From assembly GCA_044892525.1 (NCBI GenBank), contig CM097885.1, forward strand, positions 310,001-374,000: a DNA stretch of 64,000 nt, in the 5' to 3' direction. How positions within the stretch are numbered: position 1 is the stretch's first letter; each line of letters begins with the position of its first letter. The notes beneath the pieces are model-generated. The model was not told the origin of the DNA and searched no databases. It was given only the letters and a program-made list of their open reading frames with translations. Source of the stretch: Schmidtea polychroa (Eukaryota). This document shows positions 37,406 through 52,624 of this stretch, in pieces. The translations under genes and the position numbers were made by a program.

Positions 37406-38110
37406 AGTAGGGTATTGTGTGGACCCGGGAACAAAGGCATATGACGTCATCGATGACGTCACAAAGACATATTACGTCATACCCCCACCCCCGGGGGTTT
37501 TTTTTTTAAATTTTTTTAAAAAAAATTTTTTTTTTAAATTTTTTTTTAAAATTTTTTTTTAAATTTATATTACGTTGCGGTATTTTAAAAATTTATATTA
37601 CGTTGCGGTATTTTAAAATATATATTACGTTGCGGTATTTTAAAATTTATATTACGTTGCGGTATTTTAAAATTTATTATATTTTAATTATTAAATATAT
37701 TACGTTGCGGTATTTTAAAAACTTATTGATAAAAGTTTAATAAAATAAAATTATTATTACACACACACAATATAGTCTACCCGACAAAATAGTCTGTTCC
37801 CCTATGGTCATACACACACACAATGTATAAAAATATTATTAGTGTCCACACACGCAACAAGTTAGTGTTCTCATTGATATATTATTAATCTATATACTCC
37901 GAGTCTATCCGACAAAATATTCTGTCCCCCTATGGGTACTGCTCACAAGGGTACTGGTCACGCTCAACAACTCGCAAGGGTATTAATAAACAATGTAATA
38001 AAACATATATTATTATTATTATTATTATTATTATTATTATTATTATTATTATTATTATTATTATTATTATTAATATTATTATTATTATTATTATTATTAA
38101 TATTATTATT
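37406..38110 (+). repeat. Left terminal inverted repeat of family A
   Basis: Reverse complement of 51842-52624 with scattered differences; the inner end runs into a (TAT)n tract, so that boundary is approximate. Confidence 0.93.
37442..37461. promoter_or_regulatory. 20-bp palindrome of two CRE/ATF sites (TGACGTCA-TCGA-TGACGTCA)
   Basis: Exact consensus twice; mirrored at 52569-52588. Function inferred. Confidence 0.55.
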
Positions 38111-38341
38111 ATGGGTACTGCTCACAAAGGTCACAAATGTACTGCTAAAAAATATTCAAGACATTAACAAAGAAATTATACTTTAAATATACACTAAAAT
38201 TTATTAACACACTGGGTAAAGGTAACTAACAAAACTTTAACATATTATTATTATTACAATGTATAAAAATTGTTCACAAAGTTACTGTTAAAAATAATCA
38301 AGACAATAAAATCAATACATTTATTAAATAATTTAAACACA

Positions 38342-41300
38342 TCATCGAAAATAATCATGTCCAAAATAATTATCATCTGCTGGATCATGGAAATCATCTG
38401 TATCATGGAAATCATCTGTATCATCTGCTGAGATAGCTTCCGTTGAATCTATAAATATATCGGTGTCACCGCCCCTATAATGGCCATATGCCAAACTTTG
38501 ATTTTTATCCACCCAATTTCGTTTATCATCTCTACACGTCAAGGCTCTTTTATTATTTTTAATACTAAAAAGTTGGTGATTTTTTGACGTTATTCTAAAC
38601 TGAGGGACTGTGTATATTTTATCATTTAAATAACAATCTAGATACGACTGATGTGTTAGTCCAGTATCTTTCATACTTATCCCCTTAGCCTTCATACTTT
38701 CCTCATCACCCATCAAACTGTAACATTTAGGTCTCAAGAACACCCAATCTTTATATAATTACCCTTTATTCTCGTCTTTGAATTTGCCAATGACAGAATC
38801 AAGGTTCCTACTATATAAAGGATGATTTGGGTCATAATTCGAAGTATCTAATAATTGATCTCTAATCATCGCAGGTAAAAGATGTCAAGACTACAATGTT
38901 TAATTTCCAAGAAGAAGGAATCTGTGTCTCCAGCAACGATATTAATTTCGCAGTTGAATTCGTCGCGATATTTTTGCAACTTTTCATACTGCAGCTGGTA
39001 CATCCTGAGTTTGGATAAATCAAGTACGGTTTGACCAATGTAACTAGGTCTATTCAAACACACTATGTCCTTCCTCAATAAAACCGAAATCAAGTCATCA
39101 TCGATTTTCGTGGATTTACGAAAAGTCGGTTTCGAACAGAATGTTAATAATCTCTGTGAAGAATTACACAGACGTAAATTAATACGTTTTTTAAGATTTT
39201 CAACAGTCTTGCCGTAAAGACTGTTGTTTAATAATTTATAAAAATTTTTATCGAGTTTATTTGTCGACGCTGCTCGTAACGCCGTATTTGTGTTAATATA
39301 ATTTTTGAAAATTTTATCTTGTTTAAATTTAATAGCTCTATGTGTTTTTGATATTTTAACACCTAATTTAATAAATATTTGTAGAAGCCTCCAATGAAGA
39401 ACGTAGTTCCTCTTGGGGCTATGTGTAAGCAACAGCTTCTCTATTTTCGAACCCGGTACACACTTCTTTTCAGCGGCAACGGGAAGATCGTCCAGTTTGT
39501 CGTGAATTGACGTCGGTATTTCTAAATCCACTTCTATGGTATAACCATAATCAAGCAGATCTAAATCTACCGTTGTGCATTCAACAATTATATTATTTAA
39601 TAAATTATCATCAGTAACCCATTCAAAGTCACTGCAAGGTAATGGTTGACTTAAAGCCCAACCGTATAAATTATTTATATCTATGTAAAGCAAAGCGGTA
39701 TCCGGGTCTGTTTTTACATAATGTTTATTTACAAAAGTTAGTCCGCCACGGATACCGCCCTCGAAAAGTTTATACATCTCCATATCGGTGAGGAGCTCAA
39801 TTGGAAAGTTTAAAGTTAATAAGGCTGAATTCCAAGACATACCTGGAATCCCTAAGAAATTTAATGGCTCTAGTCGGTTATGAGCAATGAACTTAGCTCT
39901 AAATTGCTGGAAAAAATCGGCTAAAAGGAAAACATCAAGTTTTAAATAAACCATCATGTAATCGAAAAGTGAAGTACATGAAGTTTCAACCCAAATTCGC
40001 TGAGCTGTCTCATATTCAGCAGGAGTCACATCTTTCCAAATAGGTGGTAACTGATGAGTGTTATGTAAAACCTCTAATGAAGTTGCGACATCATAAGGAA
40101 AAATTCCCTTTGCAGTTATTATTGTACCCTGAAATTCTGATTCGGTCAAGGGTAAAGATGATAAAGTTTTGACAGCATTATTTAAAGACTCGCTGAGAAA
40201 TTGATAAGAGTCTATAAATTTAACAGTTAATGAGTCAATCTTAGCAAAAAGACTAAGGAATTTCTCGCTGGTTAAAGGAATACAACTAATATTCCATGAA
40301 TGATATTTTGAAAGGCCAAATTTCAAGATATGATGCAGATCATAACCCTTTAAATTATGAAATACTACAGGAAGGGTATGTCTAATTTGCCTCGACAGAT
40401 TACAAGTTGTACAAGCGGCACCAAGATATAGACCGGTAAAATGATCATGGTTCCTAACTGGACTAACTAAAGGCTTATTGCACAAATAACATGATGTGCT
40501 GTTTTCAAACATTAATTGTTGCTCATCTGTAATTATCATTTTCTTTTGATAATTTTTATAATAATAAGGAGTTACAATATATTTCCCTATCATTTCAATT
40601 TCAGTAAGAAATTGATCGACACAATCTAAACCGGTGAACGACTTATAAATTTTTACGCCTGTGAAATTATTAATAAAAAGCATACCGGCAGAAATAGGCA
40701 GATGACGTTGAAAGTAGCGAGTGTCTTTAGGTAAGATAGCCTCAAAGTCAGCGTAAATAACAAAGGGAGGAGTAACTGTTTTACTCCAATCAGTAAATTC
40801 TAAATATTTATTTTTAGGCAATGTGTACAAGGTAGTACCAAGCTGATTTTTATCGCAAAGACCCTTATGTCTATTAAAAGTGTCATCATTCCTAAAACCG
40901 TTTAAACATCTAGGGCACCACTGACTACAAATCCTAACAGGAGTGATTGAACTATTCCTACAATTAAGAAATCTATTTAGGTCTGTGATTCCAAGATAAT
41001 GATAATTATCATTCTTTTCGATTAATAATAAATTGATAGGTATGGCTCCTACTATCTTACTCCTATATATTATATCAATAAAGGGATGTTTCATAACTGC
41101 ATCTTCATCGGAAATGTCAATCAAAGCCTTTTCGTTATAAGTAAGAACATTAATACTATAACCCGGATTTTGTTGTTCAAATTTACTTATATTTGATAGT
41201 TTCATCGGCATATCATTAGGATCAAATTTAATTTCAGAAAGATTGTAGGAATTAGGGCGATTTCTATATTGCCTATTTATACAGTCATATTTAATAATTG

Positions 41301-51448: not shown

Positions 51449-51783
51449 ATGACTACAGAAAAAGGTTAACATGATTAATTAAATACCGAATTATTTATTA
51501 TTTAGAATTATTAATCAACTTTTTGTTGGAAAAGTTAGCAGAAATAGCTGGTGTAAAAATTGAGGATATATTATATATTACAAATGCCTTAAATATCGGC
51601 TGGGTAGCTGAGAGTCAAGATTCAGGATTTGACAATCATGAAGAAACTCAAGAAATTGATGACGAAATCTATGAACCTATAGAGAAACCTAAAGATAATA
51701 TTACGAATGATTGTATTGATCATGTCGTTGAAAATATAATGAAATGTGGAGATGACGATTGCGAATGTGTTAATAAATTTTAA
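51449..51783 (+). CDS. Orphan acidic protein, two exons (51449-51464, 51506-51783)
   Basis: ATG ACT ACA GAA AAA G|gttaac...atttag|AA TTA TTA joins in frame to ORF 51523-51783, which has no ATG start of its own. Confidence 0.6.
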
Positions 51784-51841
51784 AATTGAATTATTTTCAT
51801 TTAAATATACTATTAAAACCATGATTTGTGATAGAAATTAT

Positions 51842-52624
51842 ATAATAATAATAATAATAATAATAATAATAATAATAATAATAATAATAATAATAATAAT
51901 AATAATAATAATAATAATAATAATAATAATAATAATAATAATAATAATAATAATAATAATAATAATAATAATAATAATAATAATAATAATAATAATAATA
52001 TATGTTTAATTACATTGTTTATTAATACCCTTGCGAGTTGTTGAGCGTGACCAGTACCCTTGCTAGCAATACCCATGTGACTTGTTGAAAGTGAGCAGTA
52101 CCCTTGTGAGCAGTACCCATAGGGGGAAAGAATATTTTGTCGGATAGACTCGGAGTATATAGATTAATAATATATCAATGAGAACACTAACTTGTTGCGT
52201 GTGTGGACACTAATAATATTTTTATACATTGTGTGTGTGACCATAGGGGAACAGAATATTTTGTCGGGTAGACTATATTGTGTGTGTGTAATAATAATTT
52301 TATTAAACTTTTATCAATAAGTTTTTAAAATACCGCAACGTAATATATTTAATAATTAAAATATATTAAATTTTAAAATACCGCAACGTAATATATATTT
52401 AAAAATACCGCAACGTAATATAAATTTTTAAAATACCGCAACGTAATATAAATTAAAAAAAAAATTTTAAAAAAAAAATTTTTAAAAAAAAAATTTAAAA
52501 AAAAAAATTTAAAAAAAAAAAAATACCCCCCTCCCCGGGGGTGGGGGGTATGACGTAATATGTCTTTGTGACGTCATCGATGACGTCATATGTCTTTGTT
52601 CCCGGGTCCACACAATACCCTACT
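51842..52624 (-). repeat. Right terminal inverted repeat of family A
   Basis: Mirror of the left TIR, with an extra ~50-bp segment near 52060-52105 and a long (AAT)n inner tract. Confidence 0.93.

Follow-up and report, generated by a model that had tools for sequence, protein, structure and literature searches.

Polintons, or Mavericks, are virus-like, self-synthesizing DNA elements from which many eukaryotic DNA viruses are believed to descend, and we know of almost nothing on how they express their genes. They are said to be defined by a length of 15 kb, long terminal inverted repeats, a 6-bp target-site duplication, a protein-primed DNA polymerase of family B (PolB), an rve integrase, a genome-packaging ATPase of the A32 type, an adenain-like protease, a double-jelly-roll capsid protein and a gene in the penton position. 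All these features recur in the element described here, which occupies positions 37406-52624 of a 64,000-nucleotide stretch of the Schmidtea polychroa genome (assembly GCA_044892525.1, contig CM097885.1, positions 310,001 to 374,000 of the forward strand; hereafter the window, to whose numbering all coordinates refer). It differs from the usual Polintons in a conserved gene for a compact protein resembling the TATA-binding protein (TBP), which lies with a second conserved gene (gene 3) in a variable accessory block, in several predicted short introns and in a very high copy number. The locus is very probably one integrated, recently inactivated copy of a young Polinton/Maverick family of high copy number; the conserved TBP-like/gene 3 module, the seemingly recent activity of the family at such a copy number and a likely recent intron gain in its integrase gene make it worth following up.

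Alpha-class adintoviruses, in the available sections of their description (Starrett et al. 2021, PMC8502044), share with the element a PolB of the pfam03175 type with a long N-terminal extension, an rve integrase, an adenain-like protease and a pX-like protein with a hydrophobic tail. In the same sections, a TBP gene is named in a figure legend for the wider adintovirus group and is not discussed in the text. Compared with the adintoviruses as presented there, the pX-like open reading frame of our element has no match to PLA2 or gasdermin (Pfam, E ≤ 0.1), so it is not a PLA2X or gasderminX, and the OTU domain was not detected by Pfam or PDB sequence search. An assignment to the adintoviruses was considered and not adopted, given these results and the capsid protein, whose structure model has its best matches among the capsid proteins of large DNA viruses and virophages, with no adenovirus hexon among the matches displayed. 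Large expansions of DNA/Maverick elements in planarian and flatworm genomes have been reported at the level of repeat classes in a preprint (10.64898/2025.12.11.693146), the accessible part of which holds no gene-level description and mentions neither TBP nor introns. Such expansions would suit an abundant Maverick in an AT-rich genome with four large chromosomes. In targeted full-text searches of the literature, no description of a Polinton TBP was found beyond the adintovirus figure legends, and the family may already bear a name in Repbase or Dfam. We regard the element as one of a known kind with an under-described accessory module, the TBP gene of the wider group being already in print.

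The boundaries were read by aligning 37200-38250 with the reverse complement of 51780-52830. The identity of the inverted repeats begins exactly at 37406 and 52624, with 5'-AGTAGGGTATTG..., which gives a full-length element of 15,219 bp. The left terminal inverted repeat (37406-38112) starts with 5'-AGTAGGG and contains ACGTCA palindromes, 27-bp tandem repeats (37556-37677) and, at its inner end, a (TAT)n microsatellite; the right one, in the same alignment, spans 51896-52624. The two arms are inverted over ~700 bp, reaching into the microsatellite, and outside it their alignment has 550 matches against 16 mismatches and 6 gap events (97.2% identity). Their 5'-AG...CT-3' ends agree with those that we take to be typical of Polintons and Mavericks. 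The six bases AATATT at 37400-37405 are found again, identical, past the right end at 52625-52630, as a target-site duplication. Between these ends we found PolB, the rve integrase, the capsid fold, the ATPase and the protease; from the inverted repeats and the duplication, the coordinates given in the earlier note on this DNA, which had described a complete endogenous Polinton virus at 37406..52624, proved to be exact. The eight core genes are all on the minus strand in the order reported there, namely ATPase, pX-like, integrase, penton-position gene, PW-like, capsid, protease and PolB, and all four small genes of the divergent plus-strand block are present.

Some details of the ends were also recorded. 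The outer part of the arm (37430-37490, with its mirror in the right arm) holds a palindrome in which two TGACGTCA-like sites and one further ACGTCA can be read; runs of C and of G come after it. Inward of the palindrome, a 27-bp unit (TTTTAAAATTTATATTACGTTGCGGTA) is repeated in 3-5 copies per arm; both the palindrome and the units are candidate protein-binding sites of the ends. The element is inserted in an 81-bp host tandem repeat, which runs in the same orientation on both flanks (37221-37401 and 52631-52784).

The TBP-like gene (49605-50069, plus strand) encodes a predicted protein of 154 amino acids, with a match to PF00352 (E 7.8e-15, 54.9 bits against a cut-off of 22.9) at residues 71-134. 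The protein has a shortened first lobe of ~50 amino acids and a full second lobe; Pfam finds one repeat, so two full repeats of ~85-90 amino acids are not present. Among 120 candidate homologues, 97 had E ≤ 0.001 and all of these carry PF00352; most are 144-164 amino acids long, they are 36-61% identical to the query, save one fragment of 96% identity, and three lie on the same 16-22-kb contigs as homologues of the capsid protein. Their alignment reads I-x-N-I-N-Y ... F-x-S-G-K-C-R-I-M-G-C-K in the first lobe and Y-E-P-E-L-F-P-A-L-R ... F-A-S-G-K in the second, where the canonical YEPELFPAL...FxSGK signature is kept. The structure model (predicted local distance difference test, pLDDT, 96) had 44 Foldseek matches with E ≤ 0.001, and all those displayed were TBP chains, with both lobes aligned over 154-184 columns and a template modelling (TM) score of 0.6-0.7. 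Like canonical TBP and the TBP-related factors, the protein belongs to PF00352, and both lobes of its model can be superposed on the TBPs of archaea, yeast, plants and humans; unlike them, it has 154 amino acids against a core of ~180, lacks part of the repeat in its first lobe, is 23-29% identical to the displayed chains and has its gene on a mobile element of which there are hundreds of copies.

Of the 20 related metagenome loci with a length of at least 4 kb, 7 contain the gene. It is placed upstream of the ATPase and on the same strand in three of them (L055, L050 and L030), downstream of the protease in three others (L043, L041 and L062) and between protease and PolB in L091, a relative with a capsid protein of 27% identity. 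A search of the S. polychroa genome with the PF00352 profile gave 2998 first-look candidates, of which 150 were scored, all above the cut-off; a small number of ordinary TBP genes are among them, along with numerous single open frames of 84-236 amino acids (most 163-219). Four of these loci were fetched, and all four lie in sister Polintons with the same divergent arrangement of ATPase and TBP. From the homologues, the metagenome loci and the sister elements taken together, the earlier description of the lineage as TBP-encoding holds, and the predicted TBP-like gene is a mark of that lineage. Measured against the focal element, three of the sisters (L125-L127) have 86-96% identity in the capsid, PW-like, penton, integrase and ATPase proteins and 78-83% in the pX-like protein, but only 57% in TBP, suggesting that the accessory side was either exchanged between families or is evolving much faster. 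Ordinary two-repeat TBP genes are also present in the genome (for example at C1:244962231-244962740), together with several further TBP-family loci whose scores lie far above those of the Polinton copies.

Large DNA viruses also encode proteins of the TBP fold but bring their own RNA polymerase. The 15-kb element encodes no RNA polymerase, and its TBP-like protein would therefore need to act in concert with the host machinery or against it. With moderate confidence, we consider it most likely that the protein is a promoter-recognition factor specific to the virus, acting at the TATA-like promoters of the element itself. Against this function, the first lobe is shortened and, of the four Phe positions by which canonical TBP kinks DNA, as we presume them to map in the alignment, one is not kept. 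The within-family ratio of nonsynonymous to synonymous polymorphism (pN/pS) of the gene is 1.44, a value that comes from very few changes and is uninformative. The protein could instead be an architectural or origin-binding factor that bends the AT-rich 27-bp terminal repeats and so aids protein-primed replication or packaging; adenovirus uses host DNA-binding factors at its ends. The 27-bp unit, repeated in each arm, does contain a TATA-like run, the gene stands beside that of the packaging ATPase and the first lobe differs from canonical TBP. We hold this to be rather unlikely, as TATA, CCAAT and octamer-like motifs lie upstream of genes 2-4 and of a small gene on the other strand, and the second lobe keeps the canonical signature. 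Equally improbable, in our view, is a decoy that titrates host TFIIA, TFIIB or TAFs, or occupies host TATA boxes, and thereby shuts down or redirects host transcription. The compact fold with its truncated first lobe would suit a decoy, and the fast divergence of TBP between sister families relative to core and pX-like proteins is typical of host-interaction genes; on the other side, the DNA-facing motifs are conserved over the long term in the 40 aligned homologues. A lineage in which a TBP-like factor of its own persists over families with 27-97% capsid identity provides a direct handle on Polinton gene expression, and the protein is small and confidently folded in the model.

Gene 3 (50896-51315, plus strand, 139 amino acids) belongs to a conserved family to which no function is assigned. 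In a library of 1.84 billion proteins it has 41 representatives with E ≤ 0.001, ranging from 77 to 2911 amino acids (most ~100-200) and 24-42% identical, save one match of 90%; a word-based homologue search returned one close match only. The gene adjoins TBP in L050, L055 and L124. No assignment came from the Atlas, from Pfam (E ≤ 10), from the PDB by sequence or from the PDB by a profile of 36 homologues, and Pfam searches with each of these 36 gave no consistent family. The proposal that gene 3 encodes a single-stranded DNA-binding protein, and with it the replication half of a transcription/replication block, found no support in the Pfam, PDB sequence, PDB profile and Atlas searches.

The other two genes of the block are less widely kept. 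Gene 2, a Cys-rich orphan (50191-50600, plus strand), has a predicted first exon at 50191-50245, an intron at 50246-50292 and a second exon at 50293-50600. Contigs assembled from sequencing runs X1, X2 and X7, which come from three studies, skip 723 bases containing this gene, and in X6 the skip recurs, displaced by 21 bases; by our own mapping, the skipped stretch is bounded by two copies of CTGATTGG at about 50112 and 50826. A 31-mer of gene 2 occurs at 331 places in the genome, against 801 for one of TBP and, because of these counts and of the skipped form in the runs, gene 2 is dispensable. Gene 4, an acidic orphan (51449-51783, plus strand; predicted exon 1 51449-51464, intron 51465-51505, exon 2 51506-51783), has a weak homologue (31%) in the sister elements L125-L127 and none in the metagenome relatives. 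For genes 2 and 4 there was no Pfam match at E ≤ 10 worth any weight (the sole one, at 0.16, is meaningless) in a search that also covered the penton, PW-like and N-terminal PolB sequences. The earlier view of a separate accessory transcription/replication block is thus retained in part: the TBP-like gene is real and conserved, but the block is not a fixed unit, with gene 2 so much rarer than TBP and skipped in the runs, and with TBP differing in both position and orientation in the relatives.

Upstream of genes 3 and 4 there is a common 18-mer containing ATGCAAAT, and motifs of the CCAAT and TATA-like types precede gene 2, gene 3 and the small gene of the minus strand. The 18-mer and CTGATTGGYY each occur twice in the window, where 0.2-0.3 occurrences are expected by chance; this is suggestive only.

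Introns are predicted in five genes, one each in those of the protease and the integrase and in genes 2 and 4, and two in the small gene, that is six in all, or seven if the small gene has a third; the seven introns in five genes counted in the earlier note are close to this, while its term intron-rich describes a prediction only. In the protease gene, a tiny first exon (...ATGGA) is followed by a 34-nucleotide intron of the form GTAAGT...AG and by the conserved body of the protein. The same arrangement, ATGnn/GTAAGT...AG with 34-41 nucleotides, stands in the same place in 8 of the 13 related metagenome loci scanned; the intron is absent in the other five, which are mostly more distant, and in L043 the frame is contiguous. 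Conserved in position with a divergent sequence, the predicted protease intron is, of all the present data, what argues most strongly for splicing in the lineage. GT-AG introns of 41-47 nucleotides are predicted in the small gene and in genes 2 and 4 and, in the other copies of gene 2, the sole AG at the 3' end of the predicted intron is the acceptor that gives an open frame. Among 18 copies, insertions and deletions of 1, 6, 8, 10 or 11 nucleotides fall within predicted introns (that of 8 in intron 1 of the small gene), whereas the clean one in a coding exon has 3 nucleotides; the exceptions are a 7-nucleotide insertion at the start codon of the small gene and a 1-nucleotide deletion in exon 1 of gene 4, each in one copy.

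The integrase insert has a different history. In all seven other copies compared, the catalytic core reads ...GATTTAG/GT(ATT)n...TTTTAG/GTAAAGAA, and removal of the insert, which is 39, 72, 75, 87, 96 or 102 nucleotides long, restores TDLGKEF. It is absent from all 11 metagenome relatives in which both halves of the gene are present and from the sister element L124; the sister elements L125-L127 carry one of similar size. At the same point the relative L053 reads ...GATTTAGGTAAAGAG..., because of which the insert looks as if TTTAGG had been duplicated and a microsatellite had then expanded between its two copies, which would supply both splice sites. It is likely a recent intron gain and, being absent in relatives, present in the family and its closest sisters and bordered by duplicated AG/GT, would illustrate cleanly, in a natural case, how spliceosomal introns may originate.

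Instead, some of the predicted introns, or even all, could be unspliced, in which case the (TAT)n insert of the integrase would be either read in frame as poly-Ile or disabling, with the sister families supplying integrase. Several facts count against splicing. All insert lengths in the other copies are multiples of 3, so an in-frame poly-Ile reading is possible; the insert is missing from the relatives and from L124, as said; sister families with a 95% identical integrase coexist in the genome; and no GT-AG joint at a predicted intron, and thus no spliced RNA, was seen among the joints displayed for contigs of runs X1, X2, X6 and X7 aligned to a sister copy over most of the stretch, the type of these runs being only guessed and none being recorded as RNA. 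Against the unspliced alternative, the insert has a 5' GT, a pyrimidine-rich tract and a 3' AG, and its removal restores the conserved TDxGKEF core exactly. Moreover, it sits in the catalytic core, which could hardly accommodate 13-34 isoleucines, the lineage bearing it has made hundreds of copies with perfect duplications, and the protease intron is kept across relatives. On balance we judge it somewhat unlikely that the introns remain in the messages, and splicing is the reading that we retain.

The family is abundant in the genome, which has an assembly of 781 Mb with a GC content of ~30% and four largest contigs of 272, 190, 145 and 93 Mb. Its members were counted genome-wide with 31-mers allowing up to 2 mismatches, for which reversed-pattern controls gave 0 in all cases. 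The 31-mer of the element end was found at 937 places (475 forward and 462 reverse), that of the capsid gene, which also matches a sister subfamily with one mismatch, at 1340 (676 and 664), and that of TBP at the 801 already given (397 and 404). A hand count on the first 100 end matches listed gave 27 forward/reverse pairs within 31 kb; 13 of them are spaced by 15.1-16.0 kb, and the others by 3-14 kb (internally deleted) or by 20-31 kb (with insertions). Each of the four large contigs carries copies. In all of 12 elements, which comprise the focal one, one fetched copy and 10 pairs from the listing of end matches, the 6-bp duplications are perfect; they differ from element to element and stand in unrelated flanks.

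Ten further copies were examined over their genes. They are 96-99% identical to the focal copy, gaps in microsatellites included, and two have lost or rearranged sequence on their ATPase/TBP side; between any two distinct sequences the difference is 0.5-1.1%. The values of pN/pS are 0.24-0.38 in the capsid, penton, ATPase, integrase and pX-like genes and in gene 2, which indicates that selection was acting on the genes during part of their divergence. In five of these copies PolB forms one uninterrupted frame of 1367-1405 amino acids; it is open over the fetched part in one and interrupted in four. The capsid gene is open at full length in 9/10, one having 405 amino acids. The open frame is also kept for protease exon 2 (9/10), PW-like (9/10), integrase exon 2 (10/10) and exon 1 (9/9), pX-like (8/8), ATPase (8/8), TBP-like (7/8), gene 2 exon 2 (8/8), gene 3 (8/9), gene 4 exon 2 (8/9) and the penton gene (3 of the 4 copies in which the fetched stretch left it whole). 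Judged by these frames, the relatives look capable of recent activity. The suggestion of the earlier note that active relatives may exist is borne out to this extent by PolB, the duplications, the low divergence and the pN/pS values, and the many near-identical copies with intact frames make this a candidate family for observing Polinton activity in an animal genome.

An old, dead repeat multiplied by segmental duplication, or by an artefact of assembly, rather than by transposition or infection, might also present itself in many copies, and the host genome is indeed very repeat-rich, the window itself holding fragments of at least two other Polinton families. Twelve insertions with different perfect duplications in unrelated flanks exclude segmental duplication for these elements. 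The spread over four large contigs, a divergence of no more than 1.1% and pN/pS well below 1 point the same way, and sequencing runs of four studies contain the stretch or a part of it, runs of three of them having been aligned to it. We therefore consider this origin extremely improbable, and a young family spread by transposition or infection is the explanation that we keep.

The focal copy itself carries lesions in two genes. In PolB, one base is missing near 38883 and there is an in-frame stop at 38759-38761; none of the 11 other loci covering the site has either of them. In the integrase gene the AG splice acceptor has been lost, together with one base, and the frame is changed; the acceptor is intact in all seven other copies. 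The lesions in pPolB and integrase noted earlier are therefore present in the assembly and private to this copy and, since the PolB lesions are private and the integrase acceptor is intact elsewhere, the apparent inactivation is recent, as had been proposed. With a divergence of ~1% from other copies in its genes and of 2.8% between its two arms, the focal copy is not among the youngest insertions.

Some points speak against parts of the picture of a recently inactivated member of a young Polinton family. The ten further copies were picked from the 40 best capsid matches and are biased to close kin of the focal copy, and the lesions are those seen in the assembly. The putative penton protein has no match in Pfam (E ≤ 10) or in a PDB sequence search and, likewise, neither Pfam (E ≤ 10) nor a PDB sequence search finds an OTU-like domain at PolB residues ~290-640, where a Cys motif and a later His-Tyr were seen in the N-terminal region by eye only.

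From these data a working of the element can be proposed, which in replication, integration and virion module is the usual Polinton cycle. The protein-primed PolB would copy the linear element from its ~700-bp inverted ends, and the rve integrase would insert it, making the 6-bp target duplication. The double-jelly-roll capsid protein, the putative penton, the A32-type ATPase and the adenain-like protease would form a virion module under purifying selection. An element with no RNA polymerase gene and with apparent spliceosomal introns must presumably be read by the host nuclear machinery; it would use host RNA polymerase II (Pol II) and the host spliceosome, in keeping with its short GT-AG introns and with the TATA, CCAAT and octamer-like motifs upstream of several genes. 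It may supply its own promoter-recognition factor in the compact, two-lobed TBP-like protein, expressed divergently from the ATPase, which could bind the AT-rich/TATA-like promoters of the element, so that these would fire without host TBP/TFIID or in competition with it; gene 3 would be a possible partner. What the data show are the ends and target duplications, the genes present, the modelled folds of the capsid protein and TBP, the copy number and youth of the family, the lesions private to the focal copy and the conservation of TBP and gene 3 in relatives; splicing, transcription by Pol II, the binding targets of the TBP-like protein and the formation of virions are what we infer. More broadly, and as a tentative proposal that we hold to be possible though doubtful, a wide and so far undescribed Polinton clade of animal genomes and metagenomes might carry a promoter module (short-lobed TBP plus gene 3) that commandeers host Pol II at virus-specific promoters. 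In this proposal the accessory block would be swapped between families, the clade would be active, or would have been very recently, at hundreds to more than 1000 copies, and the integrase would show a datable intron gain, with (TAT)n between duplicated TTTAG/GT.

The core genes, all on the minus strand, are identified as follows. The ATPase (48862-49500, 212 amino acids) is of the A32/FtsK type used in genome packaging (PF04665, E 3.2e-8, 33.8 bits against a cut-off of 22.8) and is 55-74% identical in relatives. The pX-like basic protein (48354-48848, 164 amino acids, 26-55% identity in relatives) has a hydrophobic Gly-rich C-terminus, a tail that, we presume, recalls adenovirus pX. The rve integrase gene (47193-48292) has exon 1 at 47905-48292, the GT(ATT)n...AG insert from 47904 and exon 2 down to 47193; it matches PF00665 (E 2.2e-7) and, in the second half, PF13683. 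The PF00665 score, 31.5 bits, falls just below the cut-off of 32.6 because the gene is split; in relatives the halves are contiguous and 46-68% identical. The putative penton, or minor capsid, protein (46159-47226, 355 amino acids), of a kind that in Polintons is a single jelly roll, is named from its position and its conservation in relatives (28-43% identity), and its nearest Atlas clusters are unnamed Preplasmiviricota proteins (score 0.97). The PW-like small protein (45804-46166, 120 amino acids), for which Pfam gave no match at E ≤ 10, is kept between the penton-position and capsid genes in relatives, at 45-67% identity. The labels penton, pX-like and PW-like are given on position and on synteny or conservation in relatives, with no fold or family match behind them.

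The major capsid protein (44584-45807, 407 amino acids) has 129 homologues with E ≤ 0.001 among 2466 candidates, nearly all of full length (~407 amino acids) and 34-97% identical. Its AlphaFold model, built on an alignment of 38 homologues, has a pLDDT of 89.5, and Foldseek gave 295 PDB matches with E ≤ 0.001. At the top are the capsid proteins of Singapore grouper iridovirus and PBCV-1 (E 4e-16, TM 0.65-0.69), with mavirus, Sputnik and faustovirus also listed; the best matches, to iridovirus, PBCV-1, mavirus and Sputnik, range from E 4e-16 to 5e-12. Because these are double-jelly-roll capsid proteins, the modelled fold is a double jelly roll. The adenain-like cysteine protease (44172-44583; PF00770, E 2.2e-6, 27.9 bits against 21.3) has its first exon ending at 44552, the intron at 44518-44551 and the second exon at 44172-44517. 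The small gene missing from the gene list of the earlier note lies at 43494-43806; as read from the sequence, it has three exons, predicted introns at 43702-43748 and 43592-43638 (47 nucleotides each), a product of ~72 amino acids and CCAAT/TATA-like motifs of its own, and no homologue of it was found in the metagenome relatives. The protein-primed, pfam03175-type PolB gene (38342-42462; PF03175, E 1.3e-27, 97.3 bits against 25.8) is preceded just upstream by an array of ~37-bp tandem repeats (42779-43374), variable among copies.

Further observations concern PolB, the relatives and the surroundings of the element. In the N-terminal region of PolB an imperfect (AAT)n tract (42048-42289) encodes a run of Asn that differs in length among copies. 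In the metagenome relatives L055, L053 and L054 there are two tandem paralogues of the penton-position gene, and in L055, L050 and L033 PolB and the capsid module lie on different strands, whereas the focal element keeps all its core genes on one. Terminal repeats were not found in the contigs L055, L050 and L091, probably because these are incomplete. No ordinary host gene was seen across the 64-kb window, and Rfam and tRNA scans of 37000-53000 gave no matches. Positions 1-4596 (plus strand) hold a fragment of a second Polinton family, rearranged or deleted, in which PolB is directly upstream of the penton gene; compared with the focal element it is 59% identical in the PolB C-terminus, 64% in penton, 94% in PW-like and 91% in a truncated capsid gene. 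A third family is represented by four PolB fragments, at 6673-9850 (minus), 12328-15088 (plus), 53295-55626 (minus) and 57409-58001 (minus), which are 41-77% identical to the focal PolB, two of them mutually inverted; lying as they do around the focal element, they place it in a cluster of older Polinton debris. Tandem-repeat units are common to the stretches at 52.8-53.1 kb and 56.7-57.0 kb. Several long open frames at 17355-36800 and 59942-64000, which are reverse-transcriptase-like and have repeated Cys/His-rich N-terminal parts, are probably non-LTR or other retroelements.

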